The notes under the pieces are model-generated. The model did no database searches. It had not been told where the DNA came from and saw only the letters and a list, made by a program, of their open reading frames with translations. The position numbers were made by a program, and so were the translations under genes. Of a stretch of 64,000 nucleotides of DNA, positions 2,170-52,003 are shown in pieces. The stretch covers positions 416,001-480,000 of the forward strand of contig OZ220691.1 in the NCBI GenBank assembly GCA_965116475.1, written 5' to 3'. Numbering within the stretch: the stretch's first letter is position 1; every line of letters begins with the position of its first letter. The DNA is from Gemmatimonadota bacterium. GTDB lineage: Bacteria > Gemmatimonadota > Gemmatimonadetes > Palauibacterales > Palauibacteraceae.

Positions 2170-4535
2170 TGGCACCGAAGACTTCCGCCGACATCTGCGG
2201 CATGGGGCACTCCATGAAGCGCAAGGAGGATCCGCGCTTCCTGCAGGGCAAAGGCAACTACATCGACGACATCGTCCTCCCCGGCATGCTGTGGCTCGAC
2301 ATCGTCCGCAGCCCGATCGCCTACGGGAAGATCAACGGCATCGACTCGAGCAAGGCGCTGGAGGTGCCCGGCGTGCTCGCCGTCCTCACCGGCAAGGACC
2401 TCGAGGCGTACAACCTGCACTGGATGCCGACGCTGATGTCGGACACGCAGATGGTGCTCCCCACGGACACCATCATGTACCAGTCGCAGGAGGTCGCCGC
2501 CGTCATCGCCACCTCGCGCTACGCCGCCGCCGACGGGGTGGCCGCGGTCGAGGTCGACTACGAGCCCATGAAGCCCGTCATCGACCCCTTCAAGGCGCTC
2601 GAGGAGGACGCGCCCGTCCTCCGCACCGACAAGGAGGGCCAGACCGACAACCGCATCTGGCACTGGGAGGCCGGCGACAAGGCGGCCACCGACAAGGTGT
2701 TCGAGGAGGCGGACGTCGTCGTGCGCGAGAGCATGCACGTGCCGCGCATCCACGTGGCCTCCATCGAGACGTGCGGCTGCGTGGCCGACTTCAACGCCGT
2801 CGAGGGCCACCTCACCGTCTACATGACGAGCCAGGCCCCCCACGCGATCCGCACCGTGCTCGCGCTGGTGGCCGGACACGTCGGGCTCTCCGAGGAGAAG
2901 ATCCGCGTCGTGTCGCCCGACATCGGGGGCGGCTTCGGCGGCAAGGTGCCGGTCTACCCCGGCTACGTGATCGCGATCGCGGCCTCCGTCGTGCTGGGCA
3001 AGCCGGTCAAGTGGATCGAGGACCGGATGGAGAACCTCCAGGCCGACTCCTTCGCGCGCGACTACCACATGGACGCCGAACTCGCCGCCGACGCCGACGG
3101 GAAGATCCGCGGGCTCCGCATCAAGACGCTCGCGGACCACGGCTACTCCGACGCCCAGGCCGCGCCCTCCAAGTTCCCCGCCGGGCTCTTCTCCATCTGC
3201 ACCGGCTCGTACGACATGGAGCAGGCCTACGCCGAGGTGGACGCCGTCTACACGAACAAGCCGCCCGGCGGCGTCGCCTACCGCTGCTCCTTCCGCGTGA
3301 CCGAGGCCGTGCACTGCATGGAGCGCGTCGTCGACACGCTGGCCCACAAGATCGGTAAGGATCCGGCGCAACTGCGCGAGGAGAACTTCATCCCGAAGGA
3401 GGCCTTCCCCTACCAGTCGCCCCTGGGCTGGGAGTACGACAGCGGCGATTACCAGGCCGCGATGGACAAGGCCAAGGAGATGATCGGCTACGACGACCTG
3501 CGCCGCGAGCAGGCCGAGAAGCGCGCCCGCGGCGAACTGATGGGGATCGGCGTATGCAGCTTCACCGAGGTGCTGGGCGCGGGGCCGTCCAAGGACTTCG
3601 ACATCCTCGGCATCAAGATGTTCGACTCCGCCGAGGTGCGCGTACACCCCACCGGCAAAGCGATCGCCCGCTTCGGCACCAAGTCGCAGGGCCAGGGCCA
3701 CGAGACCACCTACGCGCAGATCATCGCCGAGGAACTCGGCCTCCCCGCCGCACACGTCCAGGTCGAGGAGGGCGACACCGACACCGCCCCGTACGGCCTG
3801 GGCACCTACGCCAGCCGCTCGACCCCGACCGCCGGCGCCGCGGGCGCGATGGCCGCACGCCAGATCCGCGCCAAGGCCGCGAAGATCGCCGCCCACCTGA
3901 TGGAGGTGAGCGAGGAGGACCTCGAGTGGGAGCCCGGGAAGTTCTCCGTGAAGGGCGCCCCCGACCGGTTCGTGACGATCCAGGACTGCGCCTTCGCCGC
4001 CTACACGAACCTCCCCGAGGGAATGGAGCCGGGGATGGAGGCGACGAACTACTACGACCCGCCCAACCTCACCTTCCCCTTCGGCACGTACATCTGCGTG
4101 GTCGACATCGACCGCGGCACCGGCGAGGTGACGGTGCGCCGCTTCGTGGCCGTGGACGACTGCGGCAATATCATCAACCCCATGATCGTGCAGGGCCAGA
4201 TCCACGGCGGCCTCACCCAGGGCATCGGTCCCGCGCTGTTCGAGGAGATCCCCTACGACGAGGACGGCAACAACCTCGCCGGCTCGTTCATGGACTACCT
4301 CGTCCCCACCTCCATGGAGACCCCCGCCTGGGAGACCGGCCACACCGTCACGCCGTCACCCCACCACCCCCTCGGCGCCAAGGGCGTCGGCGAGTCCGCC
4401 ACCGTGGGCGCGCCACCGGCGATCGCGAACGCCGTCGTGGACGCGCTCGCGCACCTGGGCGTGACGCACCTCGACATCCCCATCACCCCCGACAAGGTGT
4501 GGGCGGTCCTCCACAGAAAAGGACTCACCGAGTGA
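2169..4535 (+). CDS. coxL: Form I aerobic CO dehydrogenase large (Mo-Cu) subunit
   Basis: Active-site AYRCSFR motif (3276-3296), diagnostic of form I; ATG 2169 overlaps the coxS stop, so the ORF-track extension from 1836 is not used. Confidence 0.95.
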   Translation: MAPKTSADICGMGHSMKRKEDPRFLQGKGNYIDDIVLPGMLWLDIVRSPIAYGKINGIDSSKALEVPGVLAVLTGKDLEAYNLHWMPTLMSDTQMVLPTDTIMYQSQEVAAVIATSRYAAADGVAAVEVDYEPMKPVIDPFKALEEDAPVLRTDKEGQTDNRIWHWEAGDKAATDKVFEEADVVVRESMHVPRIHVASIETCGCVADFNAVEGHLTVYMTSQAPHAIRTVLALVAGHVGLSEEKIRVVSPDIGGGFGGKVPVYPGYVIAIAASVVLGKPVKWIEDRMENLQADSFARDYHMDAELAADADGKIRGLRIKTLADHGYSDAQAAPSKFPAGLFSICTGSYDMEQAYAEVDAVYTNKPPGGVAYRCSFRVTEAVHCMERVVDTLAHKIGKDPAQLREENFIPKEAFPYQSPLGWEYDSGDYQAAMDKAKEMIGYDDLRREQAEKRARGELMGIGVCSFTEVLGAGPSKDFDILGIKMFDSAEVRVHPTGKAIARFGTKSQGQGHETTYAQIIAEELGLPAAHVQVEEGDTDTAPYGLGTYASRSTPTAGAAGAMAARQIRAKAAKIAAHLMEVSEEDLEWEPGKFSVKGAPDRFVTIQDCAFAAYTNLPEGMEPGMEATNYYDPPNLTFPFGTYICVVDIDRGTGEVTVRRFVAVDDCGNIINPMIVQGQIHGGLTQGIGPALFEEIPYDEDGNNLAGSFMDYLVPTSMETPAWETGHTVTPSPHHPLGAKGVGESATVGAPPAIANAVVDALAHLGVTHLDIPITPDKVWAVLHRKGLTE

Positions 4536-4631
4536 AGATTGCCAAGCTGCTTCCAACCTATCGGTCCCACCGGCTCGACCCTTGCTCCTCCTTTTCTTCC
4601 CCCAACGTACTCCTGCGCAGAAAGGATACCG

Positions 4632-5030
4632 ATGCCTGATACTAACTATGTCGCAAATTATGCGGCACGCATTACCCGCATTCTCCCCACAGAATTTGTC
4701 GGTGCCTATCTCACCGTAACCCAAGTCGTCCGGCATAACCTTGACTTCCGCCAGCCCGCACTGTTGTTGTCACTGTTTGTTTGTTTATTCCTCATCCCTA
4801 CGTTCCTTACTCGGATCAAGGGGATCAACAATCGGCAACATCACCGCGTCGTCCAGATCTCCTTTCTCGTCTGGGTCTACGCACTCGGAGACTTGTTTCA
4901 GCCCGGACGACTGCTCCCTTATGACCTGTATCATCCAGAACTTGGCACAGTCCTTCTTGTCCTTTGGGGCCTCGTTCCCCTCGTATTGCACATTGAACCC
5001 CATGCGGAGGTACAAGACAATGGTAGCTAA
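4632..5030 (+). CDS. Hypothetical 3-4 TM membrane protein (lower GC)
   Basis: AAAGGA SD-like sequence before ATG 4632; hydrophobic segments; YAARITRILPTEFVGAYL N-terminal motif; overlaps the next ORF. Confidence 0.65.
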   Translation: MPDTNYVANYAARITRILPTEFVGAYLTVTQVVRHNLDFRQPALLLSLFVCLFLIPTFLTRIKGINNRQHHRVVQISFLVWVYALGDLFQPGRLLPYDLYHPELGTVLLVLWGLVPLVLHIEPHAEVQDNGS

Positions 5031-5823
5031 CCGTCCACTCCCGTGCTGCCGTATCGTGATGGCCGCGATCATGCTTTCGATCGCACCAAGTGGATCCTAT
5101 GCTCAAATAGATGTGTATCCGAAGCTTGACCCCTATCACTCGAAACGTCTCTTTTTTGAAACGAGTCCGTTCGGCACGCTCGCCCTTATGCCCAATGTGA
5201 GGTCTCCATCTCAAGCGAAGCTCGAACACCAATATATGGCATTCCCAAAGAGCGGATCATATGACATTCCAGCGCGTTCCGAGTGGTGGTTTGTCGTCAA
5301 TCATAGAAAAAGCGTGGCCGCAACAGATGACTATACATATGTCGGTGTTTTTATAGCCAGGTTGTTGTCGGCAGAACAGATAGAGCCGCTAAAACTACAG
5401 CGCAACGAGGGTTGGTACAGCGGACAAGATCTCGATGCCATGGATGAGGACTTTATCTCGTGGAGCAATTTCTTCGTACTTCAAGATTCTGACGCGGAAG
5501 AAGCTTTTCGACAGGAGTATGGCGAATGGCACGCTCTCCCTGATTCGGAGGCAAGGAATTCTTCTTGGTTTCATCGCGACAGGTGGCTTAGTGACGATAG
5601 TATCAATAGTTGCTTTGGGGATGTTATTGGTCAAGAGCCCGACTCGTCTTTCATCTCATATCGCGCCCATCTCATTCGATTTCAGGTCACGTCAGGAGTG
5701 AACACGCAAAGACCTGTGGCGTGGAACGTCGCTGAACTGAACATGGCTCGTGGTATATTTGTAAAGACGTTTTCGCCGGAAGGCGTTGGGCTAAATCTGG
5801 AGTACTGTTTGGCTCTCCGATAG
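5020..5823 (+). CDS. Hypothetical secreted protein (lower GC)
   Basis: ATG 5020 overlaps the upstream gene; signal-peptide-like N-terminus ending SYA-Q; 267-aa open frame in AT-richer DNA. Confidence 0.6.
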   Translation: MVANRPLPCCRIVMAAIMLSIAPSGSYAQIDVYPKLDPYHSKRLFFETSPFGTLALMPNVRSPSQAKLEHQYMAFPKSGSYDIPARSEWWFVVNHRKSVAATDDYTYVGVFIARLLSAEQIEPLKLQRNEGWYSGQDLDAMDEDFISWSNFFVLQDSDAEEAFRQEYGEWHALPDSEARNSSWFHRDRWLSDDSINSCFGDVIGQEPDSSFISYRAHLIRFQVTSGVNTQRPVAWNVAELNMARGIFVKTFSPEGVGLNLEYCLALR

Positions 5824-5905
5824 CCAATTGTCAGCTTGGTGCAGAAACTGTCGATCGATTCGGTCCCTTACGATGAACTGAAGGGCCGTTCGGGCGGTCT
5901 CGGAT

Positions 5906-6342
5906 TGGAGTTGCCCCGCTCTCACGGACACCTTTCCATTGGGCCAACCAAGGAAATGTGTCGTGGCGGCAGGAGCGGGGCGGTACCCGCCGGAGTACCG
6001 GGAGCGGCTGGTCGAGCTTGCGCGGTCCGGTCGTAGCGCGCGCTCGGGAGTTCGATCCCTTCGGAGTAGACGATCCGCAACTGGGTCAAGCAGGCGGAGC
6101 TGGACGAGGGGGAACGGAGTGACGGGCTGACGGCGGAAGCGCGGAGCGAGATGTCGCATCTGCGTCGTGAGAACGGGCGGCTCCGGACGGAGCGGGACAT
6201 CCCAAAAAATGGCCGTGGCCTGGTTCGCGAAGGAGAGCGGATCGATCCCCGGCGGGGGTACACGTTCATGAAGGCGCACCGGGCCGAGTTCTCGCTCCGC
6301 GCCATGTGCCGGGTGCTGGGTCTCTCCTCCAGTGGGTACTAC
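5906..6342 (+). mobile_element. Degenerate IS3-family insertion sequence remnant (left end, broken orfA, start of orfB)
   Basis: TGGAGTTGCCCC...GGACAC left end; orfA fragments YPPEYRERLVELARSGRS / TIRNWVKQAELDEG / LRRENGRLRTERDI with an in-frame TAG and frameshifts; A-run at the orfA/orfB junction; orfB start FMKAHRAEFSLRAMCRVLGLSSSGYY then truncated. Confidence 0.85.
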
Positions 6343-6604
6343 ATCGTGGACCTCATGGACGGCGACCGCGGCGCCTATTGGGAAGGGGGGGGGGGGGGGG
6401 TCGCCCAAGCGCTTGACAAACCAGTCGGATACATCATGCACCAAGCAGCCTTCGATGAGACCGAGGCGCACTTCGACACGAACCACTAACACGATCGTTT
6501 TTGGGGGGCCGGGAAAGACAGATGATCAGTTCGTAGAAGAACTCATCGCCACGCTTCGGCGATACCCTAGTCGGCTGGACCTTTGGGATATCCTCAGGAG
6601 GTAG
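6343..6604 (+). pseudogene. C-terminal remnant of a nucleoside 2-deoxyribosyltransferase-like protein
   Basis: IVDL..DRGAYWE(G)n.AQALDKPVGYI...FDETEAHFDTNH then frameshifted TIVF...FVEELIATLRR, resembling the xADLT..N.GAYWEAGYAEGLGKPVIY pattern recalled for this family. Confidence 0.5.
6385..6400. repeat. G16 homopolymer
   Basis: 16 consecutive G. Confidence 0.9.
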
Positions 6605-8140: not shown

Positions 8141-11100
8141 TCAGCCCTCCCGGGAAGTTGTCAATCCCCTGCTGCCTTGCAGATTCTTAGGCAGCTGTCC
8201 GAACCGAGTGCGAGTGTATTGGCGCGTGTCCTCAGACGACAGTTTCACGGTTCCTGGGCCGCTGCGGACGAAGAAGTCCCCATCTTCGGTGTTGTCGAAT
8301 CCCTTCCACCGGAGGTAGACGGGCTCAGGGCTTCGTTGGCAGCTCACGACGCAGACCGAGCCGCCGTCCAGGATCTGAGTTCTTGGATCGATGCATGTCC
8401 CGGCGCGGTCGCCCAGTGCGTTTCGCACGATCTGGGTTAGATGGAGCATGAACTTGTCGTCGGTGTCGAAGCCGTCCCGCTCGATGCCGACGACTGATCC
8501 ATCGTCGGCGACGCCGAGGAGGAGGTCGCCGCCTTCCGTGTTCTGGAAGGCCGCGATTGTCTTCAGGGCGGCGTGGGTTATGCGGTTGTCCTTGCGGTCC
8601 TCCTTGAGGTTCCAGCGTAACGTGGACTTGAATTCCAGCGTCTTCGACTCGCCACGCTTGATCAGTTCCTCGGCGTTCCGGTGGCCGCGCAGGTACTGGT
8701 CGAAGAGGAGCGTCTTCACGAGTTCGCCGAACGCGCGGTCGTCGGTGATGCGCTTGTAGAGGTCGAAGTTCGAGTCGACGATGCCCTGGATCACCTCCTC
8801 GACCTTGTGATCGAAGGTGAGGCGCACGTTCTCGCGGGTGTTCACGCGGGCGGCCGCGGCGAGCGCCGTGTCGTCCTCGAGCTTGTCCATCATCTGGTTG
8901 AGGGTCACGCGGTGTTCCGGCCCGAGGTTTAGGCCGAAGCGATCGTTCAGCTCCGCGATGATCCGTGAGAGGGCCTCGATCTCCTCCTGCGCCACTCCCG
9001 GTTGTAGGCCGGTCTTACGGGGTTCGATGGTGCCGGAGCCCCGTGACAGCTCGATTCCCCCCTTCCCCGTCTGCTGGATCCGGTACGACTCCATGTCGAT
9101 CTTCTGCTGTACTTCCCGCGGGAGTTCGTTCCCGTCCGCCGGGAGGAGTTGCCGGAGGTAGCGGGTGAAGACGTGCAGCTTCTCGAGGTCCGCGTCCTTG
9201 AAGGTCAGGATCTGCGCCAGGAACGAGTAGAGGCGCGTGTACTTCCGCAGCCCGCCGCGGAACTCCGAGCGCGCGTCGGGTTCCAGATCGCGGAAACGCC
9301 CCACGGGGTCGGCGAGCGCGGCGTACAACTGATCCTGCGTAGCGTCGCTCCCGAAGTAGACCCGCGCGAAGGCGTCCACCTCCGCCTCGGTGTATACGTG
9401 GAAGCCGAGAAGCTCGCCTTGGAGATCGTAGAGGAGGTTCGGATCCGTCGCCTCTGAGAGGATCGTCGTCTCGTAGTACGGTTCGAACGCCTCGCGGATG
9501 TGGTCGGCTTCGTTGGCGAAATCGAGGACGGCCGTCTCGTCCTTGCCGGGATGAGTCCGGTTCAGGCGCGAGAGAGTCTGCACCGCGTTCACGCCGCCCA
9601 GCTTCTTGTCGACGTACATGGTGTGGAGGAGGGGCTGGTCGAACCCCGTCTGGAACTTGCTCGCCACGACCAGGAACCGGTACTCGGGCTTGGCGAATTC
9701 GGCCGCCGTCTGCTGCTCTCCGATCAGGTGCGGTCCCCCGGCCGAGTTCATGCCGGGTTCGGTGTATTCTTTCCCCTCGTCGTTCACCTTCCCGGAGAAG
9801 GCGACCAGGCACTTCCAGGGATACCTCTTCTCCTCCAGGTAGGCGTCCACGGCGAGCTTGTAGCGCACGGCGTGGAGGCGGGAGCGGGTGACGATCATGG
9901 CCTTGGCCCTGCCGCCGATCCTGTCCTGCACCTGCTCGGCGAAGTGCTCGACCATGATCCGCACCTTCCGCCCGATCGCGTGCGGGTGCAGTTCCACGAA
10001 GGACTTGAGCAGGTATGCAGCCTTGCCCTTCTCGTACCTCGGGTCGTCCTCGATCGTCTTGAAGAGCCGCCAGTAGGCCGAGTACGTCGTGTAGTTGGCG
10101 AGGACGTCGAGGATGAAGCCCTCCTCGATTGCCTGCCGCATGCTGTACAGGTGGAACGGCTCGAACCCGCCATCGGCCTGCCTGACGCCGAACAACTCAA
10201 GCGTCTTCGCCTTGGGCGTCGCCGTGAACGCGAAGGTGGAGAGGTTCGGCAGGGGGCCGCGTTTCTCCATCTCGGCGAGGACGGCCTCCTCCAGTTCCTC
10301 TTCCGGCGTCGCGGCTTTGGCTTCCTCCTCCTCGGCGGCAGAGAGGCTTCCAGCGGCGAGTACGGCCTTGAGGCTCTTCGAACTCTCGCCGGACTGGGAG
10401 GAGTGAGCCTCGTCGACGATCACCGCAAACCGCTGCCCGGGAAGCGATCCGATCTGCTCAGCGATCACCGGGAACTTCTGGAGCGTCGTGACGATGATCC
10501 GCTTGCCGGATTCCAGCGCCTCGCGGAGCTGCTTCGAATCCTTGTCGATCTTCTCGACCACCCCGAGCGTCTGCTCGAACTGGGTGATGGCGCGCTGAAG
10601 CTGGCGGTCCAGCACACGGCGGTCGGTGACGACGACGATGGAGTCGAACACCGAGCGATCATCGGCATCGTGGAGCGTGGAGAGCTGGTGCGCGAGCCAG
10701 GCGATCGTGTAGCTCTTGCCGCTCCCGGCCGAGTGCTGGATGAGATAGCGCTCACCTGCCCCGTGGTTCCGGGCGTGAGACACCATGCGCCGTACCGCAT
10801 CGAGCTGCTGGTAGCGGGGGAAGATCAGGCGTTTCGTCTTCCGGCCCGCGTCGTCTTCTTCCTCCACCTCGTGGATGAACTGCCGGACGAGATCGAGAAC
10901 GCTGTCCCGGGCCCAGACTTCTTCCCAGAGGTAATCCGTGGAGTACCCGCTTTGGGTCGGGGAGACCGGAGGATTTCCGGCGCCGCCGAATCTGCCGCGG
11001 TTGAAGGGCAGGAACCGCGTCTTCGCTCCTTCGAGTCGCGTGGTGACATACACTAGCTCCGGATCCACCGCGAAGTGCGCGAGGCAGCGTCCGTGCGCGA

Positions 11101-11725
11101 GGAGCGGTTCGCGAGGATCGCGATCATGCCGGTACTGGCGGATCGCATCTTCGACGTTCTGCCCGGTGAACGGATTCTTGAGTTCGACCGTGAAGAACGG
11201 GATGCCGTTCAGGAACAGCACCAGGTCGAGGCTCTGTTCCGTCTTGCTGCTGTAGCGGAGCTGGCGGACCACGGAGGAGATGTTCGCCGCGTGGAGGCGC
11301 CGCGTCTCCTCGTTGAGGCCGCTGGCGGGGCGGAAATAGGCCAATTGGAACTTGCACCCCGAGTCCTTGATGCCTTTGCGGAACACGTCGAGGGCACCGC
11401 GCCGCTCAAGCTCCTTCGATAATCTCCTCAGGAATCGATCCCGAACTTCGGCTCCATGATGCTCTTTCAGCTGCGCCCAGGTGCGCGGTTGAGTGGCGAC
11501 GAGGAAGTCGATGACATCTTGCGGTAGGAGACCTAGGCCACGGTCGTAGTCGGCCTCTGAACCCCGGCGGCGGTAGCCGACGGGCGCGAAGCCATCGCCG
11601 TACGGGACCGACAGGGCCTCGTGGACGGCGCCGCCGCTCTCAGCACGTGCACCAAGGCCCCCGCAAAGCAAAGCGGACTCGATCGCATCCTCGAGCGCTC
11701 GCTCGGAGATGTCCACAGCTGTCAT
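8141..11725 (-). CDS. hsdR: Type I restriction enzyme R subunit with C-terminal Schlafen/AlbA_2 domain
   Basis: DLVLFLNGIPFFTVELKN nuclease motif, QHSAGSGKS, DEAH, FTATPK, FQTGFDQP, QTLSRLNR; C-terminal GESKTLEFKS...AFQNTEGGDLLLGVADDG. Confidence 0.93.
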   Translation of the reverse strand: MTAVDISERALEDAIESALLCGGLGARAESGGAVHEALSVPYGDGFAPVGYRRRGSEADYDRGLGLLPQDVIDFLVATQPRTWAQLKEHHGAEVRDRFLRRLSKELERRGALDVFRKGIKDSGCKFQLAYFRPASGLNEETRRLHAANISSVVRQLRYSSKTEQSLDLVLFLNGIPFFTVELKNPFTGQNVEDAIRQYRHDRDPREPLLAHGRCLAHFAVDPELVYVTTRLEGAKTRFLPFNRGRFGGAGNPPVSPTQSGYSTDYLWEEVWARDSVLDLVRQFIHEVEEEDDAGRKTKRLIFPRYQQLDAVRRMVSHARNHGAGERYLIQHSAGSGKSYTIAWLAHQLSTLHDADDRSVFDSIVVVTDRRVLDRQLQRAITQFEQTLGVVEKIDKDSKQLREALESGKRIIVTTLQKFPVIAEQIGSLPGQRFAVIVDEAHSSQSGESSKSLKAVLAAGSLSAAEEEEAKAATPEEELEEAVLAEMEKRGPLPNLSTFAFTATPKAKTLELFGVRQADGGFEPFHLYSMRQAIEEGFILDVLANYTTYSAYWRLFKTIEDDPRYEKGKAAYLLKSFVELHPHAIGRKVRIMVEHFAEQVQDRIGGRAKAMIVTRSRLHAVRYKLAVDAYLEEKRYPWKCLVAFSGKVNDEGKEYTEPGMNSAGGPHLIGEQQTAAEFAKPEYRFLVVASKFQTGFDQPLLHTMYVDKKLGGVNAVQTLSRLNRTHPGKDETAVLDFANEADHIREAFEPYYETTILSEATDPNLLYDLQGELLGFHVYTEAEVDAFARVYFGSDATQDQLYAALADPVGRFRDLEPDARSEFRGGLRKYTRLYSFLAQILTFKDADLEKLHVFTRYLRQLLPADGNELPREVQQKIDMESYRIQQTGKGGIELSRGSGTIEPRKTGLQPGVAQEEIEALSRIIAELNDRFGLNLGPEHRVTLNQMMDKLEDDTALAAAARVNTRENVRLTFDHKVEEVIQGIVDSNFDLYKRITDDRAFGELVKTLLFDQYLRGHRNAEELIKRGESKTLEFKSTLRWNLKEDRKDNRITHAALKTIAAFQNTEGGDLLLGVADDGSVVGIERDGFDTDDKFMLHLTQIVRNALGDRAGTCIDPRTQILDGGSVCVVSCQRSPEPVYLRWKGFDNTEDGDFFVRSGPGTVKLSSEDTRQYTRTRFGQLPKNLQGSRGLTTSREG

Positions 11726-11728
11726 CTC

Positions 11729-13039
11729 TCAGCCGTCGTGTATGCCACGCGCCTCCGCGCCTTCCCAGCGGTTCCTCACATCTATCCCTCCGGTGACCGC
11801 AGCTGAGATAAGCGCCGCCCGGTACTCATCCAAACGCCGGACAACGCTCTTCGTCTTCGCGATAGCTGCGTCAAGCCTCGCGCTTTCGCGCTCCACGTGC
11901 ACAAGAATCGCATCTTGCTCGGCAAGCGGCGGTACGACAACCGGAAAATTCTGCAACATCGGAAGCCGCAGGGAGTCAACCGTCGACTTGGCAGTGCCCC
12001 GCATGGTCTCGAACCGTAGCGATGCCCCGAAGTAGTGATAGAAGAACTTCCCGACAACTTCTTCGAAGCCGCTGAACTTGTATACGCGCTGATGGAAATC
12101 AAATTTTCCGTTCACGTAGTGAAATACTTTGGCGACGCCAACGCCATCGCCCGCCGTCAGCACGGCTTCGCCATCAAACGACCAAGTGTCTATTCGTTCC
12201 ACGGTCGGCGAGCGAACAAAAAACGGGTATTCCCCTCCTTCTTGTCGATCTACTGTGTCGCGCCCACCCGTCGTGATGTTCGCCAGCGTCCTAAGTCGCT
12301 GCAGCCCCCAATGCGCCGGAATCTCACCCAGCCACTCAACGCCGGACTCCTTCATCGGTACGTTCGGGTCGAGGCCGAGGGTGACGGCACGGGTGATGAG
12401 GGCAGTGCGTTTCTCTTGCAGCAAGTCGATGAGTCGCTCCTGCCTCGCGAGCAGTTCGTCGATCTTGGCAGTTTCGCGGTCCAAGAAATCAAGGATGACT
12501 TCCTGTTCGGTTCGCGGAGGGATTGCCAACGGTAGGGCAAGCCAGCGATCCGTGGGCAAGCGTCGACTACCGTGGCCCGCCACATCCACGAGTGACAAGA
12601 GGGCCTCCTGTGTTGCCGCCAGGGCTCGGCCCAAGAACCGCTCGTTGACTCCGCGTAGCGGTCGCAACGCTTTCATGTCCTGATTGATGGTGACCCGACA
12701 TGTGGTCCAAGCGACCGGAACGGCCTTGGCCAAGATCATGCCGCGGACGACCATGAGTACCGCTCCGCTGTCCACAACTGTGAGCGATGTCTCGTGGACG
12801 GCGGCTTCCGTCACCCGGATGGCCGAGTCATCGATGGCTTCGACCTTCATGTCCTTGGGCGTAACCCAAGGGATAGAGCCATTCCAATACGCCTCAACTG
12901 CCATGCTTGGGGTCATGCCGCCGGTGACTGCCACGCATCGCTTTAGCTTCTTTACGTTCCAATGTGCCGGGATCTCCCCCAACCACTCGACGCCGGAGTC
13001 CTTGTATTCCGGATACGGCCGGGGAGTACGGTTCGCCAC
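11729..13039 (-). CDS. hsdS: Type I restriction-modification specificity subunit (two TRDs)
   Basis: Duplicated (YKD/MKE)SGVEWLGEIPAHW conserved regions, PP..EQ..I motifs and two helical spacers; GTG 13039 just after the upstream stop. Confidence 0.92.
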   Translation of the reverse strand: MANRTPRPYPEYKDSGVEWLGEIPAHWNVKKLKRCVAVTGGMTPSMAVEAYWNGSIPWVTPKDMKVEAIDDSAIRVTEAAVHETSLTVVDSGAVLMVVRGMILAKAVPVAWTTCRVTINQDMKALRPLRGVNERFLGRALAATQEALLSLVDVAGHGSRRLPTDRWLALPLAIPPRTEQEVILDFLDRETAKIDELLARQERLIDLLQEKRTALITRAVTLGLDPNVPMKESGVEWLGEIPAHWGLQRLRTLANITTGGRDTVDRQEGGEYPFFVRSPTVERIDTWSFDGEAVLTAGDGVGVAKVFHYVNGKFDFHQRVYKFSGFEEVVGKFFYHYFGASLRFETMRGTAKSTVDSLRLPMLQNFPVVVPPLAEQDAILVHVERESARLDAAIAKTKSVVRRLDEYRAALISAAVTGGIDVRNRWEGAEARGIHDG

Positions 13040-13040
13040 G

Positions 13041-13652
13041 TCAGCGGGCGCGGTCGTAGAGCAGCGGTTCCACCAAGTAGCGCGCACGGCAGGCCTCTGC
13101 GGCGCGCCAAATCTCATCCGGCGTCGCTTTGCGTTCAAGCAGGACGTCGTCGAAGGCCTCCAGGGCGGCCTCGAGACCCACGCGGCGCCTGAAACGGAAG
13201 CAGTCCACTACCGTGCGCGCCGGCGTTGTGATCTTGGCGGGCACGCCCTCAAACTCCGTGTCCACCACGCCGTACCGGAGAGATGGGCCGGAGAATCGCG
13301 TCACATGGAGCTTGACCGAGTCCATGCTGGGCGCCCGCTCGCCGTGTGGGACGGCGATCCAGACGCCGTATCCGAGTTGCGTGCCGATGTCGTGAACCGT
13401 CAGGGCCGTGATGAGGGAGACGATCGCGTGCGGCGCCCGCGCGCAGACGGCCGCCACGCTGTGGTGTTGTGTGATGTCCGCATCCGTCCGCCAGTAGAGC
13501 CCCCACCCTTCGCGCTCAACCAGCCCCGCCGCCTCCATGCGCCGTAGATTGTCATACGACACCCCGGCCGCCTCCGCGTCCTGGGGACGGAAAAAGGCGG
13601 GGAGACCGGCATCGCGCAGGCGCTGGGCGTTGGTGGTCGTTGTGCGAAACAA
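13041..13652 (-). CDS. AbiEi-family (type IV TA) antitoxin / transcriptional regulator, orphan copy
   Basis: wHTH-like GLVEREGWGLY, SLITAL..H, ITTPARTVVDCFRFR; paralogous to 16255-16863; TTG 13652 chosen to match the paralogue length. Confidence 0.8.
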   Translation of the reverse strand: MFRTTTTNAQRLRDAGLPAFFRPQDAEAAGVSYDNLRRMEAAGLVEREGWGLYWRTDADITQHHSVAAVCARAPHAIVSLITALTVHDIGTQLGYGVWIAVPHGERAPSMDSVKLHVTRFSGPSLRYGVVDTEFEGVPAKITTPARTVVDCFRFRRRVGLEAALEAFDDVLLERKATPDEIWRAAEACRARYLVEPLLYDRAR

Positions 13653-13676
13653 ACGTTCACGCTGTTTGCATAAAAC

Positions 13677-13700
13677 GTCACATCTACAAGCAGATGTGAC
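13677..13700. promoter_or_regulatory. Inverted repeat GTCACATCT-N6-AGATGTGAC, putative AbiEi operator
   Basis: Perfect 9-bp IR, imperfectly extendable to 13667-13711, immediately upstream of the AbiEi gene. Confidence 0.6.
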
Positions 13701-13784
13701 ATTTTTCTGCATGAACCCGAGCCTGTCAAGAGGCGCACGTAAGCCCCGTACTCTGAGTGCCGCCACCCCCAACCCTCAACCACT

Positions 13785-16003: not shown

Positions 16004-16255
16004 CTAGGGATCCAACGAACGACGGGGGTCCACATCCCGGGTTCCCCGGAACGTGTCGGCGCCCCGCACGACAAACAGGGTCGCACCCTTCAGCGTGAAT
16101 AGGTCGGACGCGGGCGACCGGCCCATCCGGTAAAGGAATCGCTCAGCCGCGTAGGACTGGAGGAGGAAGTTCAGTTGCGTCCCCTGGTCGCGCGCCACGT
16201 TCAGCGGGCGGGCATGGACTGACGCAAGGACGTTCGTGATCGGCCTGCGCCGCAT
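16004..16255 (-). pseudogene. Truncated AbiEii nucleotidyltransferase toxin (N-terminal ~83 aa only)
   Basis: ASVHAR..N.AR, YAAERFLYR, LKGATL, TRDVD motifs; ATG overlaps the AbiEi stop; frame ends just after the DxD motif. Confidence 0.8.
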
Positions 16256-16863
16256 CAGTACGCCCGCATCCTCAGGGCCGGCCCCAGAAGTGAACGGGCG
16301 CCGCACACGTCTGCGGCCCGCCAGATCTGATCGGGCGTTGCCTTGCCGTCGTCGAGCACCTCCTGCAGCGCTTCGAGAGCAGGTTCGAGTCCGATCTTGC
16401 TTCGGAACCGAAAGCAGTCCACCACGGTTCGCGCTGGCGTGGTGATCTTCGTGGGCACACCGTCGAATTCCGTGTCCACGACGCCATACGTGAGGGACGC
16501 CGCGCTGAAGCGCGTGATGCGAACCGGTAGCCTCTCAAGGGCCGGGGGCCGGGACTTGTGGGGGATCGCGATCCAGACCTGGTGCGGCTTCTGCGTGCCG
16601 ATGTCGTAGACTTCCAGCGCTGTGAGCAGGCAAACGACGGCCTGCCGCGCCCGCGCGCACACGGCCGCAATCGTGTGATGGCTCGTGACGTCGGCACGCG
16701 TTTGCCGGTAGAGGCCCCAACCTTCACGCTCGACTAGACCGAGGCCCTCCAGGCGCCGAAGCTCGTGGTAGCCGATTCCGGCCGCCTCCGCATCGCAAGG
16801 ACGGAAGAACGTACCGAGACCTGTCTCGGAGAGCCGCTCGTCGTTGAGGGATTCCTGAATCAT
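16255..16863 (-). CDS. AbiEi-family (type IV TA) antitoxin
   Basis: GLVEREGWGLYR, CLLTAL, ITTPARTVVDCFRFRSKIG; translationally coupled to the AbiEii fragment. Confidence 0.85.
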   Translation of the reverse strand: MIQESLNDERLSETGLGTFFRPCDAEAAGIGYHELRRLEGLGLVEREGWGLYRQTRADVTSHHTIAAVCARARQAVVCLLTALEVYDIGTQKPHQVWIAIPHKSRPPALERLPVRITRFSAASLTYGVVDTEFDGVPTKITTPARTVVDCFRFRSKIGLEPALEALQEVLDDGKATPDQIWRAADVCGARSLLGPALRMRAY

Positions 16864-17007: not shown

Positions 17008-19173
17008 TCAGGACTCCGATCCGTAGGGAATCCGCGCCACTTCCCGGAGCATATCCACGATCTCGGCCCCGATGGCCCCGATGTCGGCTTCGATCTCCTC
17101 AAGCGGGCGGGGCGGCTTGAAGCGGTAGAAGTAGCGGTTGAAGTTGATCTCGTATCCCACGAGACCGACGTCGCCGTCGCGTCGGTCGCGCTTCGTCGTA
17201 TCGATCCAGGCGTCGTCCGCGTGCGGCTGGACCTCGCGCGCGAAGAACTCTCGCACGCTTTCCGGGACGCCGTCGTCGTCCACAGGGTCGTCACCGTCGG
17301 GCAACGGCACGCGCTCTGTGTCCCGCAGTTCCGGATCGGGCTCGGGATGGCCGTGGGCGTCGCGGCAGATCTCCGCCGTCTCGTCCCGTTCCGAGAGCGC
17401 CTTGAGGATCGCCTTCCGTACCGGAACGCGCAGGTTGATCTCCGCCTCCTCCATGGCTGCATCCAGTACGACGGCGAACGCGTCGCGATCCTTGGGGAGA
17501 TCGTCCGGCATCGCCTCAAGCGCCGTCTTGATCGCTGCCTGTAGCGCCCGGCCTTCCTCCTGCTCGCGCTCCCCGGCCTCACCCCGTTTCCGCGACTTGG
17601 CCAGGTTCGCGAACGCCGTCTGCTCCTCCAGACGTGCCATGCGCTCCTCGCTCGCCTGGAAGTTGAGTCGCAGTGGACGTTCCACCGTGATCTTCCGGAA
17701 CCCGAACCGGGTCGTGGGGAATACGCGGCTGACCGGCACGTCCTCCTCACCGTCGGCGCCGACCACGGGCCGGGTCTCGCCATCCCGGAAGCCGCGGACG
17801 AGCGCCAGAATGTCCGCCGCCTTCTCCGCTGGAATGTCGCGCCGCTTGTCCCCGAGGCTCTTCTTGCGCGGCGTCCAGAAGGAGGTGGCGTCGATGAGTT
17901 GGACCTTGCCCGCCCGCCCCGGCGCCTTGCGGTTCGTGAGGAGCCAGATGTAGGTGCCGATGCCGGTGTTGTAGAAGAGCTGTTCCGGGAGCGCGATCAG
18001 CGCCTCAAGCAGGTCGTTCTCCAGGATGTGGCGGCGAATCTCGCTCTCGCCGCTCCCCGCGTCGCCGGTGAAGAGCGGCGATCCGTTCATGATGATCGCG
18101 ATGCGCGTGCCACCCTCCTCCGGCGTCCTCGCGCGCGCGAGCATATGAAGAAGGAAGAGCGTCTGCCCGTCGCTGATCCTCGGGAGGCCGGGACCGAAGC
18201 GGCCGGCCGCCCCGCGCTCGTGCTCGGCCTTGACCGCGTCCTTGTCCCGTTTCCAGTCCTTCCCGTACGGCGGGTTGGCGATCAGGTAGTCGAAGTGTTT
18301 GTCCGCGTGCCGGTCGTTGGAGAGGACGCTCCCGAACGCGATGTTCCTTGCGTCATGTCCCTTCGGATCCTTCATGAAGAAGTCCGACTTCGACACGGCC
18401 CACGTCTCGGGGTTCACCTCCTGCCCGAACAGGTGGACCTCCGCGTCGCGGTTGATCGCGGGCCGCAGGAGTTCGCCGTCCTCTTCCCTTCCCTCGAGGA
18501 TGCGCTGCTTGGCGATCATCAGCATGCCGCCGGAGCCGCAGCAAGGGTCGTACACGCTGCGCACGGTCCCCACCCGCGAGAGTTCCTCCTCGTCGCCGGC
18601 CAGCATCAACTCGACCATGAGGTGCACCACGTCCCGCGGTGTGAAGTGCTCGCCGGGGTTCTCGTCGAGGGCCTCGTTGAACTTCCGGATCAGCTCCTCG
18701 AAGATCGTCCCCATGGTGGGGTTGTCGACGACGTCGGGATGGAGGTCGAGCGTCCCGAACCGCTCCACGACCTGGTACAGCAACTGCGACTCGTCGAGCT
18801 TGCTGATCGTGTTGTCGAAGTCGAACCGCTCGATGACCTCCCGCATCTCGTCGCTGAACCCGACGATGTAGTTGCGCAGGTTCGCGGCCAGCGCGGGCGC
18901 GTCGCCGAGAAGGCGCTCGAAGTCGTACCGGGACGTGTTGTAGAACGCGAACCCCGACGCCTTCTTTAGCTGCGCGTCCATGTCCTCAAGACCCATCCCG
19001 CGCAACTCCGCCTTCCGCGCCAGCACCTTCTCCTTCGTCGGCGCCAGCACGCAGTCGAGCCGTCGCAGGACGGTCAGCGGCAGCATCACATCCTGGTACT
19101 TCCCCCGCTTGAAGGTGTCCCGAATCAGGTTCGCGACATCCCAAATGAAGCTGACGATCTCCGTGTGGGTCAT
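17008..19173 (-). CDS. hsdM: Type I restriction-modification N6-adenine methyltransferase subunit
   Basis: IVSFIWDVANLIRD, GEHFTPRDVV, YDPCCGSGGM (motif I), NPPY (motif IV), GYEINFNRYFY; ATG 19173 preferred. Confidence 0.95.
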   Translation of the reverse strand: MTHTEIVSFIWDVANLIRDTFKRGKYQDVMLPLTVLRRLDCVLAPTKEKVLARKAELRGMGLEDMDAQLKKASGFAFYNTSRYDFERLLGDAPALAANLRNYIVGFSDEMREVIERFDFDNTISKLDESQLLYQVVERFGTLDLHPDVVDNPTMGTIFEELIRKFNEALDENPGEHFTPRDVVHLMVELMLAGDEEELSRVGTVRSVYDPCCGSGGMLMIAKQRILEGREEDGELLRPAINRDAEVHLFGQEVNPETWAVSKSDFFMKDPKGHDARNIAFGSVLSNDRHADKHFDYLIANPPYGKDWKRDKDAVKAEHERGAAGRFGPGLPRISDGQTLFLLHMLARARTPEEGGTRIAIIMNGSPLFTGDAGSGESEIRRHILENDLLEALIALPEQLFYNTGIGTYIWLLTNRKAPGRAGKVQLIDATSFWTPRKKSLGDKRRDIPAEKAADILALVRGFRDGETRPVVGADGEEDVPVSRVFPTTRFGFRKITVERPLRLNFQASEERMARLEEQTAFANLAKSRKRGEAGEREQEEGRALQAAIKTALEAMPDDLPKDRDAFAVVLDAAMEEAEINLRVPVRKAILKALSERDETAEICRDAHGHPEPDPELRDTERVPLPDGDDPVDDDGVPESVREFFAREVQPHADDAWIDTTKRDRRDGDVGLVGYEINFNRYFYRFKPPRPLEEIEADIGAIGAEIVDMLREVARIPYGSES

Positions 19174-19311
19174 AGGCTCGAATCCGGGGACGTTGGTCCG
19201 GTGCCCCCCGCGGCGATCGCGCGTCAAACACTCGTTCCGTTGAAGGTGGCCCGCCCGTTTCGTATCACTTATCGACATTTGTGTAATGCAAATCTTGTAG
19301 CACCAAAACGG

Positions 19312-20432
19312 CTACCACACAACCGTGTCGCGCTCGACGATGTCGAGAAGGGGCTCGAACGCATACAGGGCTGGCCGGCGTCCGCTTGCCTTCTCCACCA
19401 CGTCGATGACGTCGCCCTCGCTTAGCAACTTGAGCGCTCGATGGGCAGTAGCGTTCGTTACGCCCGTGTCCTCAATGAACTCGGTCGTCGTGAAGATGGG
19501 CTCGCTGAAGATCGCATCCAGGAAACGAACGGTGTACGGCGATCTCGTGAGCCCTTCCACATGGGCCTTCATGTCGTCGTATAGGCCCAGGATCTCGCGG
19601 ACCCGTTTGTATTGTCCTCGGCCTGCGCCTGGAGCGCTCGTAGGAAAAAGCAGGACCACTCCGTCCAATCGTCGTCGCGAGACACCGCTCTGAGCCGCTC
19701 GTAATACTCTGCGCGATGGGAATCCAAGTAGTAGCTGATGTAGAAGACGGGCCTGCGGATGAGGTCATGCTGCCACATGAAGAGCGGTACAAACAGTCTT
19801 CCGAGGCGCCCGTTCCCATCCTGGAACGGATGGAGAGCTTCGAACTCCGCGTGGAGGATCGCGAGCTGCACCAATTGATCGAGGGGCGAGGGATCGTGCA
19901 TGTACTTTTCCCACGCCGACATGGCATCCGGCAGCAGATTCGCCGGAGGCGGGACAAACCACGCCTCGTCGATCGTACACCCCGGCGGGCCAATCCAGTT
20001 TGGTCCCGCCCGGAACTCGCCGGGGTTCCGGTTACGGCCGCGTACGCCCGCCAGGAGTCTCTCGTGAGCCTGCCGAAGCACGCGCAAGCAAAGAGGCAGG
20101 TCGTTCAGCAACCGACTCGCGTCGTACATCGCGGTCCGGTAGTTGAGCACCTCCTCGAAATCGTACTGCCGATGCTCCGACCCCTCGCGCCTTCCCGCCC
20201 TGAACTGAAGAACCTCCTCCATCGTCGTTCGGGTGCCTTCGATCCTGTTGGAAAACACCGCTTCCTGTGTCGCCATGGGAGCGAGGAGAACATCCGGATC
20301 CAAGATCGCTGCAAGCATACCGTCGTATCTCGCAACCGCTGCAGAAGCCGGACCCAGGAGAGGGATAATCCGAGACCAGTCAAGAAGGCCGTCCGGAGGG
20401 AACTTCCCGATGTGGTATTGTACCGGACTCAA
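19312..20432 (-). pseudogene. Fic-domain protein (Fic_N + Fic + C-terminal HTH) with a single-base frameshift
   Basis: AGGAGG SD before TTG 20432; SNRIEG inhibitory motif; HPFQDGNGRLGR; frame breaks at the T run 19606-19608 and continues as RVREILGLYDDMK...HTH to 19312. Confidence 0.8.
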
Positions 20433-20572
20433 CCGGGACCTCCTACGTCTTTCTCGAGACACCCGCCGTCGCCGTCGCCCACGGCCTCTCCGGACAGATC
20501 CAAGGTAACGATATCGCGGCCGCTTCGGGAAAGCTCGCGGCCGATGTGGCCGAGGCCCGACCGACATGGAAG

Positions 20573-20601
20573 TTGCCCCTCGACGCATCCTCCGACATCT
20601 T
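20573..20601 (+). promoter_or_regulatory. Putative sigma70-type promoter TTGCCC-N17-CATCTT, 8 nt before the sORF ATG (possible leaderless transcript)
   Basis: -35-like hexamer at 20573-20578, 17-nt spacer, -10-like hexamer at 20596-20601; no SD before ATG 20610. Confidence 0.4.
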
Positions 20602-20609
20602 CTCGCGCC

Positions 20610-20738
20610 ATGATTTGCGCGCCTGACATCCGACCTCTCCGCGCCCGCGGAGCGAGCTGCGCCTGCGGCACCCCTGCCTGCGGCACCTGCGCCTGTATGT
20701 GTTCGTGTCCCCACGACGCGTGGATCCGGGTGTGTTGA
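20610..20738 (+). CDS. Cys-rich 42-aa sORF, putative attenuator leader peptide (MICAPDIRPLRARGASCACGTPACGTCACMCSCPHDAWIRVC)
   Basis: 9 of 42 codons are Cys, 7 of them within codons 17-33; followed by a terminator and then a co-oriented gene. Confidence 0.6.
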   Translation: MICAPDIRPLRARGASCACGTPACGTCACMCSCPHDAWIRVC

Positions 20739-20770
20739 TGCGCTGAGCTCCAAGCTCAAACCGTTTTTCG

Positions 20771-20805
20771 AGCCGCCCCGGTCTGCCGACCCGGGCGGCT
20801 TTTTT
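20771..20805 (+). terminator. Intrinsic terminator / attenuator hairpin upstream of the ATP-grasp gene
   Basis: AGCCGCCC-C-GGTC-TGCC-GACC-C-GGGCGGCT stem ending in a T6 run, 38 nt before ATG 20844. Confidence 0.8.
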
Positions 20806-20843
20806 CGTGCCCCGTCCAACCGGACTCAACCCGAGAGAAACCG

Positions 20844-51918: not shown

Positions 51919-51974
51919 TGGTTTATGGTCCCCTTGCCGGCCGGCTTCCCCGCACCGGACATTTGTTCGGCCGC

Positions 51975-52003
51975 GTGTCACCCGAAAGCAGTGTCACCCG
52001 AAA
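51975..52003. promoter_or_regulatory. Direct repeat GTGTCACCCGAAA x2 (16-bp period) in the divergent supA / creatininase intergenic region
   Basis: Exact 13-bp copies at 51975-51987 and 51991-52003. Confidence 0.6.

Follow-up and report, generated by a model that had tools for sequence, protein, structure and literature searches.

Type I restriction and transfer RNA (tRNA)-cleaving abortive systems usually count as distinct layers of immunity; to our knowledge, PrrC with EcoprrI is the lone, decades-old case of cross-talk between type I restriction and a tRNA nuclease (tRNase). PrrC is encoded within the type I locus and is masked by the type I enzyme. The gene described here encodes a complete type I restriction subunit (HsdR) joined in frame to a C-terminal Schlafen/AlbA_2 domain, and lies on the reverse strand of a 64,000-nucleotide stretch of a Gemmatimonadota bacterium of the Palauibacteraceae (contig OZ220691.1 of assembly GCA_965116475.1, positions 416,001 to 480,000; hereafter the window, with positions counted from its first letter). 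Similarly to PrrC with EcoprrI, the fusion would tie a tRNase physically and genetically to a type I restriction enzyme. By contrast, PrrC is a separate protein of unrelated fold (an ATPase-like N-domain with its own nuclease domain) that has no homology to the Schlafen domain of the fusion; Pfam on the fusion protein yields HsdR-type domains and PF04326 only.

Bacterial Schlafens are defined by an Ex4(E/D)xK motif (PMC13056530), and domains with this motif cleave tRNA in phage defence (PMC13056530; PMC13462974; bioRxiv 10.64898/2026.05.29.728809). The catalogue of PMC13056530 includes 5,930 bacterial Schlafen proteins in 55 architectures, and RorSlfn5 is shown there to sense a T5 protein and cut tRNAs. 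Similarly to RorSlfn5 and the pSlfn proteins at large, the fusion has an Ex4(E/D)xK nuclease domain joined to a larger, possible sensor and located in a defence island. While the partners of pSlfn are Ig-like, HisKinase or helix-turn-helix (HTH) domains, the partner here is a complete type I HsdR. Supplementary Table 2 of PMC13056530 (pSlfn1-55) includes no HSDR, ResIII, SWI2, PF04313, PF18766 or PF04851 string; it holds one T1R_D3-like.SLFN_AlbA_2 row of 516 residues, with the clan string of pSlfn15 (P-loop_NTPase.pSlfn, 17 members). Its classes also include type I target recognition (TRD) domains (pSlfn19) and PDDEXK domains (pSlfn34).

Links of bacterial Schlafens to restriction-modification (RM) genes are already noted in general terms. 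PMC13462974 describes Schlafens fused directly to methyltransferases and ATPase-Schlafens adjoining RM systems, speculates that such RM-linked Schlafens sense structures from DNA cleavage, and names PrrC as a tRNA-Lys nuclease; 'HsdR' is absent from its text, and HsdR, ResIII or related names are absent from its six supplementary files. One methyltransferase-Schlafen fusion that corresponds to 'Cluster 3' of PMC13462974 is WP_012413137.1 of Nostoc punctiforme pNPUN01, a 1341-residue Eco57I/MmeI-type methyltransferase encoded next to a PLD-SNF2 helicase gene. Like the fusion, WP_012413137.1 has a C-terminal Schlafen on an RM enzyme; by contrast, the partner is a modification/type IIG-like enzyme, not a type I motor/nuclease subunit, and the domains share 33% identity. 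This methyltransferase fusion (H3) is among the eight records matched in a plasmid collection, all of which fall below 40% identity.

Three further systems couple a Schlafen domain to nucleic-acid sensing. CbCash (PDB 9ylu) resembles the reading proposed below in being a tRNase licensed by a nucleic-acid immune system; Cash, however, is a separate protein activated by diffusible cyclic tetra-adenylate (cA4) via a Csx15 domain, whereas the domain here is covalently part of a DNA-targeting enzyme. The Schlafen-Argonaute RzAgo shares with the fusion, as read below, the joining of a foreign-DNA sensor and a Schlafen tRNase in one polypeptide. RzAgo is licensed to cleave tRNA when its DNA target is recognised, and its single-lobe Schlafen domains pair to form a tRNA-binding cleft that rebuilds the two-lobed mammalian architecture (bioRxiv 10.64898/2026.05.29.728809). 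The RzAgo sensor is an RNA-guided Argonaute with a GHKL ATPase, while the sensor here would be a methylation-sensing type I complex with a superfamily 2 (SF2) motor and its own DNA nuclease. Human SLFN11 and group III Schlafens likewise unite a Schlafen nuclease with a helicase-type ATPase in a single polypeptide, and their tRNA cleavage is linked to the sensing of nucleic acids by the ATPase part (PMC13056530, PMC13462974). By contrast to the fusion, these Schlafens have the reversed domain order and a superfamily 1 (SF1) helicase instead of the SF2 motor of HsdR; mammalian Schlafens are also two-lobed, while the domain here corresponds to the catalytic C-lobe only.

A preliminary description of this DNA, made from its sequence alone, had known of no characterised HsdR-Schlafen fusion. 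Consistent with this statement, a literature search that paired the names of the domain (Schlafen, AlbA_2, PF04326) with HsdR or type I restriction returned no description of such a fusion, and the three papers that name both Schlafen and HsdR, one of them a 2026 nuclease review, do so in unrelated contexts. The census of bioRxiv 10.64898/2026.05.29.728809 (103,533 Schlafen proteins) could include the architecture. Automatic annotation thus catalogues the fusion, which the literature searched neither describes nor tests.

Architecture and distribution of the HsdR-Schlafen fusion

The preliminary description proposed a complete HsdR of about 1015 residues whose frame continues for about 180 residues with the AlbA_2/Schlafen core pattern and its acidic residues intact, and each element of this proposal stands. 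A single 1194-residue open reading frame (ORF) runs through both regions, guanine-cytosine (GC) content is level across the HsdR/Schlafen junction (0.62-0.65), and unfused relatives end at about query residues 1016-1018. The nearest two unfused HsdR cluster representatives (990 and 1019 residues, 56-57% identity) match the query over residues 49-1018 and 4-1016, respectively, and extend no further. The two sequence strings quoted earlier for the core pattern are located at residues 1025-1034 and 1059-1076; thus, the span 8141-8680 corresponds to residues 1016-1194 and the stop.

The C-terminal domain belongs to Schlafen/AlbA_2 by hidden Markov model (HMM), profile and fold. SLFN_AlbA_2 (PF04326) is matched at an expectation value (E) of 5.3e-18 and 66.1 bits (gathering cut-off 25.3), over profile positions 1-117 of 118. 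A PDB sequence search with the last 199 residues finds mammalian Schlafens only (SLFN13/8, 12, 11 and 5), with weak but consistent scores (E 0.009-0.6). A profile from an alignment of 63 rows (A2), which includes 12 divergent fused representatives and 30 DUF262-Schlafen proteins, matches SLFN14 (E 1.8e-6), SLFN11 (E 7.8e-6) and SLFN13 (E 8.9e-6), as well as the characterised bacterial tRNase CbCash (9ylu, E 5.6e-5). The DUF262-Schlafen family was itself recovered in 640 of 1374 candidates at E <= 1e-3.

Structure prediction, proposed earlier as a check, returns the Schlafen/AlbA_2 fold. AlphaFold with A2 on a 184-residue piece has a predicted local distance difference test (pLDDT) of 92.6 and a predicted template modelling (pTM) score of 0.86, and order extends over approximately residues 1018-1175, followed by a floppy tail; a model of the C-terminal 199 residues from the narrower alignment A1 (45 rows, none below 70% identity) had a pLDDT of 45.4 and was discarded. 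A Foldseek search of the PDB gives 24 matches with E <= 1e-3, all of which are AlbA_2, Schlafen or SAMD9 chains (query-normalised TM scores of up to 0.60). These matches include DIP2311 (3lmm), the SAMD9 tRNase domain (9o0d), SLFN13-N (5yd0), SLFN14, 12, 11 and 5, the RecG-related N-domain (2kyy) and the SAMD9 DNA-binding domain (DBD) with DNA (7ksp). In a protein-language-model atlas the C-terminal piece falls among Schlafen AlbA_2 clusters (score 0.91). PADLOC, which has no model for the domain, gives no match to the C-terminal 179 residues alone. A two-copy complex prediction of the Schlafen domain, run without controls, scored 0.00 in both runs (mark 0.42) and speaks neither for nor against dimerisation.

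The catalytic-type residues of the Schlafen family are present as E1026, E1031, K1033 and D1074. In the PDB alignment, GGDLLLGVADDG of the fusion protein pairs with GGSLFIGVDDKS, beside the ESKTLEFK/ESQSIEFK pairing with SLFN11. Every one of the 106 full-length close homologs has the same four residues, and 10 of the 12 divergent fused cluster representatives retain them, the exceptions being the fragment P0261 and P0128, which has K in place of D1074. Relative to the query, mean identity is 0.81 for the Schlafen domain, 0.82-0.87 for the motor domains, 0.72 for the helical domain and 0.24 for the last 29 residues (1166-1194), in a set that was picked by C-terminus similarity and is therefore biased to conservation at the C-terminus. 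Judged by these identities, constraint on the Schlafen domain is strong and matches that on the motor. One residue of the window departs from the family: Q1061 (8543-8545) is L in 104 of 106 close homologs. The segment that contains Q1061 (AAF-x-NTEGG) is the counterpart of 'SAFAN', a motif named by the preprint on Schlafen-Argonaute (bioRxiv 10.64898/2026.05.29.728809).

The remainder of the gene is best read as encoding a working type I restriction subunit, with a predicted DNA translocase and a predicted PD-(D/E)xK DNA nuclease. The protein has the N-terminal PD-(D/E)xK nuclease and SF2 translocase of a type I R subunit and is co-encoded with hsdM and hsdS. PADLOC REase_I models match at E 9.6e-34, and EcoR124I HsdR is matched at E 1e-12 by sequence and at E 2e-21 by profile (N-terminal body). 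The PD-(D/E)xK residues D167, E181 and K183, and the Walker A K337 and DEAH D438/E439 of the motor, are kept in 105-106 of 106 close homologs; thus, the RNase (ribonuclease)-type domain is added to the DNA nuclease and does not replace it, and a single polypeptide has two active sites of nuclease type. The helical domain of EcoR124I HsdR is thought to touch the methyltransferase and to share in the control of HsdR activities (PMC5248579).

The fusion is recurrent in databases and genomes. When 5.8 billion protein clusters were searched with scoring restricted to residues 1010-1194, 1358 of 2311 candidate proteins matched the domain at E <= 1e-3; among the best 120 of the 1358, nearly all have 1170-1200 residues, the full set of HsdR domains with PF04326 and 70-90% identity, and the others are shorter pieces. 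The closest relatives among the matches listed are from Gemmatimonadota (Candidatus Palauibacter) genomes at 87-89% identity. In a survey of one genome per species (185,579 species), a relative is encoded in at least 502 of 600 pattern stretches (species genomes). The best 80 loci span 15 named phyla (Gemmatimonadota 20, Acidobacteriota 17, Pseudomonadota 9, Latescibacterota 8, Binatota 5, and others) and include the cultured isolates Cyanobium sp. Morenito 9A2, Pelomicrobium sp. G1 and Microcystis elabens FACHB-917. An assembly chimera, named at the outset as a possible refutation, is excluded by 48 of these 80 independent loci, which have an intact in-frame ORF of at least 1100 residues, by 18 more that are merely cut by a contig end, and by the level GC content.

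Rearranged forms of the gene are also noted. In one locus (L056, 8580-9986), a DDE_Tnp_1 transposase gene lies between a 1019-residue HsdR body and a separate 182-residue Schlafen ORF; in another (L048, 9308-10519), a 403-residue ORF in which Fic_N is joined to the Schlafen domain has the look of a remnant left by a deletion. When short proteins with the domain alone were searched for, 1236 of 1313 candidates matched. The best 120 of the 1236 are 69-88% identical and 158-322 residues long, with many on 1-5 kb contigs, and are read as fragments of the same HsdR-Schlafen fusion; thus, the stand-alone search added no diversity.

Proposed mechanism and alternative readings

In the preferred reading, to which a probability of roughly 0.55 is given, the Schlafen-type RNase module would form a second, RNA-directed effector arm that depends on the state of the restriction complex and is triggered by engagement of unmodified DNA. 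The Schlafen-type ribonuclease module, proposed to be catalytically competent, sits right behind the helical domain that would dock HsdR on the HsdM2-HsdS core. This position, and the abortive-infection or toxin cargo that recurs in the operon family, favor the reading. By analogy to its family, the module would most likely be a tRNase that arrests translation. The RNase would be latent and licensed by the state of HsdR or the restriction complex, with the motor engaging unmodified foreign DNA as the most likely trigger (sensor to effector). Engagement is preferred as the trigger because RzAgo (DNA target), Cash (cA4, type III CRISPR) and SLFN11 (single-stranded DNA) are all switched on by nucleic-acid sensors. 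The preliminary description had reached an RNase function from the eukaryotic Schlafens; the family function stands, while the eukaryotic basis is no longer needed now that bacterial Schlafen tRNases have been demonstrated (2025-26).

Several points weigh against this reading. The functional interpretation draws on family and sequence, and the direction of the trigger is purely inferential. Conserved acidic residues are not proof of RNase activity, and the fold also binds DNA, as in the hSAMD9 DBD-DNA complex (7ksp) and the SLFN5-N labelled DNA-binding by its depositors, both among the fold matches. The HsdR scores 214.2 bits against NCBIfam TIGR00348, under the curated cut-off of 284.55, and is thus assigned to a divergent lineage. 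In nine of the best 80 loci the gene is split into two or more pieces, and five have a shorter ORF only, which may be due to sequencing frameshifts or decay. A scan of 1.84 billion cluster representatives with the whole protein returned 17,380 HsdR relatives at E <= 1e-3, and in this survey of how often the fusion occurs, which the preliminary description had suggested, the Schlafen domain is present in 12 and missing in 138 of the best 150 (median length of the 138, 1006 residues). On a FastTree tree of the HsdR body only (query columns 50-1005; 133 rows comprising 129 representatives of at least 940 residues, the query and three close homologs, with 21 shorter representatives excluded), presence of the domain requires seven changes, at least five of which are forced by well-supported branches. 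By these comparisons, the Schlafen domain is dispensable for restriction and is an optional module gained or lost at least five to seven times. A tree of the Schlafen domains alone places the divergent fused representatives on long, unresolved branches, and its sole supported clade is the DUF262-fused set (96).

The arrangement raised in the preliminary description, and here considered rather unlikely, is the alternative that survives best: similarly to PrrC, the Schlafen RNase would be silent while HsdR sits properly in the restriction complex and would be unleashed by a phage anti-restriction factor, such as an Ocr/ArdA-type DNA mimic or a Stp-like peptide, as an abortive infection backup. 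The attachment of the domain right after the HsdR region thought to touch the methyltransferase (PMC5248579) is consistent with such a guard, as are the other backup and abortive modules in which the operon family is rich and the Schlafen RNases proposed as 'backup suicidal effectors' beside BREX cores (PMC12839542). The Schlafen fold, however, is unrelated to PrrC, no PrrC-type ATPase is detected by Pfam on the fusion protein, and what switches on the three bacterial Schlafen systems characterised so far is a positive signal from the sensor rather than the loss of a partner. The precedent of PrrC masked inside a type I locus also favors the guard, and the evidence here cannot separate it from the engagement trigger.

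It is quite improbable that the Schlafen domain is instead a non-catalytic nucleic-acid-binding or regulatory module, which would aid HsdR in holding DNA or RNA or in assembly while cutting no RNA. AlbA_2 was first annotated as DNA-binding, NCBI names relatives 'putative DNA binding domain-containing protein', and the DNA-bound SAMD9 and SLFN5-N matches point the same way. Against this, the E, E, K and D residues are invariant in all 106 close homologs and kept in 10 of the 12 divergent ones, and mutation of the equivalent residues abolishes tRNA cleavage in CbCash (E17Q/D22N; PMC13462974) and RzAgo (D32A; bioRxiv 10.64898/2026.05.29.728809). The least probable alternative is a nuclease that is active on something else (single-stranded DNA, phage transcripts or ribosomal RNA, rRNA) and would help to destroy the invader rather than arrest host translation. 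All three characterised bacterial members cut tRNA, even though SLFN13 is termed tRNA/rRNA-targeting in a reference title, SLFN5-N is described as cleaving single-stranded RNA, and SLFN14 is solved with double-stranded RNA.

Domains other than Schlafen are also found on related HsdRs. These include a Schlafen domain followed by a Peptidase_S24 (LexA-like) domain (P0126), a C-terminal treble-clef zinc finger (zf_Tbcl_2; P0225 and P0229) and an N-terminal EAD7 domain (P0196). P0206, P0177 and P0231 are among several HsdRs that are long for the family, with no Pfam domain beyond the HsdR set. Thus, the C-terminus of this HsdR lineage appears to accrete accessory domains repeatedly.

Operon and genomic neighborhood

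The fusion gene is part of a type I operon on the reverse strand of the window, where the gene order is SoFic, hsdM, AbiEi, SIR2_2+SEC-C, AbiEi, hsdS, hsdR-Schlafen and Ser/Thr kinase (Table 1). The true start of hsdS is probably downstream of the listed TTG. The HsdM is long (756 residues), with an N6_Mtase match that ends near residue 470 and about 280 C-terminal residues that carry no Pfam domain. The SIR2_2+SEC-C protein has weak PADLOC similarity to Dsr1, LmuA and ThsA.

Table 1. Positions in the window of the fusion gene, its domains and motifs, and the neighboring genes.
Feature	Positions	Strand	Basis or remark
hsdR-Schlafen fusion gene	8141..11725	-	single 1194-residue ORF with stop codon
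HsdR body, residues 1-1015	8681..11725	-	Pfam, PADLOC REase_I, conserved residues, length of unfused relatives
HSDR_N nuclease domain, residues 146-232	11030..11290	-	Pfam, E 1.7e-13
SWI2_SNF2/ResIII motor domain 1, residues 306-542 (303-542 for the Pfam matches together)	10100..10810	-	Pfam, E 1.1e-27
T1R_D3-like motor domain 2 segment, residues 681-736	9518..9685	-	Pfam, E 8e-11
C-terminal helical domain of HsdR, residues 754-1015	8681..9466	-	aligns throughout with unfused HsdR relatives
Schlafen/AlbA_2 domain as folded, residues 1018-1175	8201..8674	-	Pfam, structure prediction, fold and profile matches
PF04326 (SLFN_AlbA_2) match, residues 1026-1162	8240..8650	-	Pfam
E1026-x4-E1031-x-K1033 motif (ESKTLEFK)	8627..8650	-	aligns to ESQSIEFK of SLFN11
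D1074, candidate third catalytic acid, in GVADDG	8504..8506	-	aligns inside the GVDD segment of SLFN11/13
C-terminal tail of low conservation, residues 1176-1194	8144..8200	-	low identity, pLDDT 62-66
Ser/Thr kinase, 488 residues	6624..8090	-	directly downstream of hsdR; best PADLOC matches mad6 (E 2e-50) and PD-T4-6
hsdS specificity subunit	11729..13138	-	stop 3 bases ahead of the hsdR start
Second AbiEi	13041..13772	-	cargo of the hsdM-hsdS gap
SIR2_2+SEC-C protein, 703 residues	13785..15896	-	cargo of the hsdM-hsdS gap, flanked by the two AbiEi paralogs
AbiEi	16255..16863	-	cargo of the hsdM-hsdS gap
hsdM methyltransferase subunit	17008..19278	-	PADLOC PDLC03029, E 1.5e-258
SoFic-type Fic protein	19569..20819	-	upstream of hsdM

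Neighbors were counted in 47 related loci that have at least 6 kb upstream of hsdR, of which 38-40 have the type I gene order of the window. The most common neighbors are hsdS (40), hsdM (38) and AbiEi (38), followed by a SoFic-type Fic gene (18), which when present usually lies between hsdS and hsdR. The kinase is found in one locus. A SIR2 gene is found in none of the 47; thus, the SIR2_2+SEC-C gene of the window looks like a lineage-specific insertion into the operon. The gene of about 0.9 kb that follows AbiEi in relatives encodes the AbiEii toxin. While most relatives have AbiEi and then AbiEii, the window has two AbiEi genes and no AbiEii toxin gene; a tandem AbiEi pair that lacks AbiEii is also found in the closest Palauibacter/Longimicrobiales loci (L001 and L039).

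The two intergenic slots among hsdM, hsdS and hsdR in related loci (L051, L054, L014, L039, L022, L058 and L002) have other cargo: HTH-Peptidase_M78 with DUF4411, an SDH-type ClpP-like serine protease, an OLD-type ATPase-TOPRIM with a UvrD helicase (Gabija-like), GmrSD and a STAND NTPase. By the recurrence of such cargo, the restriction operon is a scaffold that regularly carries abortive-infection or toxin-type modules, of which the Schlafen domain is the sole one joined in cis to the R subunit. In a Spirochaetia genome (L032, 17218-19362), a 714-residue DUF262(GmrSD_N)-Schlafen protein is encoded about 7 kb downstream of the HsdR-Schlafen gene, and the island therefore has two different Schlafen fusions.

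Beyond the kinase gene, GC content dips to 0.51 at about 4500-6000, compared to 0.62-0.70 around it, and the ORFs of this region (4539-5030, 4741-5823 and 5791-6492) have no Pfam match. The dip may be the edge of the defence island, beside a molybdopterin dehydrogenase-like gene (labelled by eye from its translation). Further along the window is a modular polyketide synthase of 3474 residues (41557-51981, reverse strand; KS-AT-DH-MT-ER-KR-ACP-KS). The sole ARAGORN tRNA call of the window (tRNA-Thr, 50470-50562) lies inside the polyketide synthase ORF and is probably false.

Implications for type I restriction and the Schlafen family

The element that appears new here is HsdR as a Schlafen partner; sensor-effector fusions of Schlafen in prokaryotes are known already, as are restriction systems to which abortive modules are attached. 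The covalent HsdR-Schlafen fusion is found in at least several hundred species of at least 15 phyla, with both nucleases apparently under constraint. The fusion is widespread, strongly conserved and directly testable, and after the Schlafen papers of 2025-26 it would be no great surprise to specialists.

A broader interpretation, held tentatively, is that one classical type I restriction enzyme, ATP-driven and methylation-sensing, carries an abortive-infection-type tRNase and decides on translation shutdown upon engagement of unmodified DNA, collision or disablement by anti-restriction factors, and that the C-terminus of HsdR is a general docking point for swappable effectors. Candidates for such effectors among the HsdRs observed are Schlafen, Schlafen with an S24 peptidase, a zinc finger and unannotated extensions. 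If this interpretation is true, a single enzyme would provide both restriction and immunity by tRNA cleavage, in place of two layers.

The fusion would offer a simple and genetically separable system for understanding how a DNA-sensing restriction machine controls an RNA-directed effector, and would also be suited to asking whether translation arrest cooperates with or backs up restriction. Nucleic-acid-sensing activation of human Schlafens is under active study, and the fusion would add a new sensor class to the Schlafen family, in the form of a methylation-reading SF2 motor complex.

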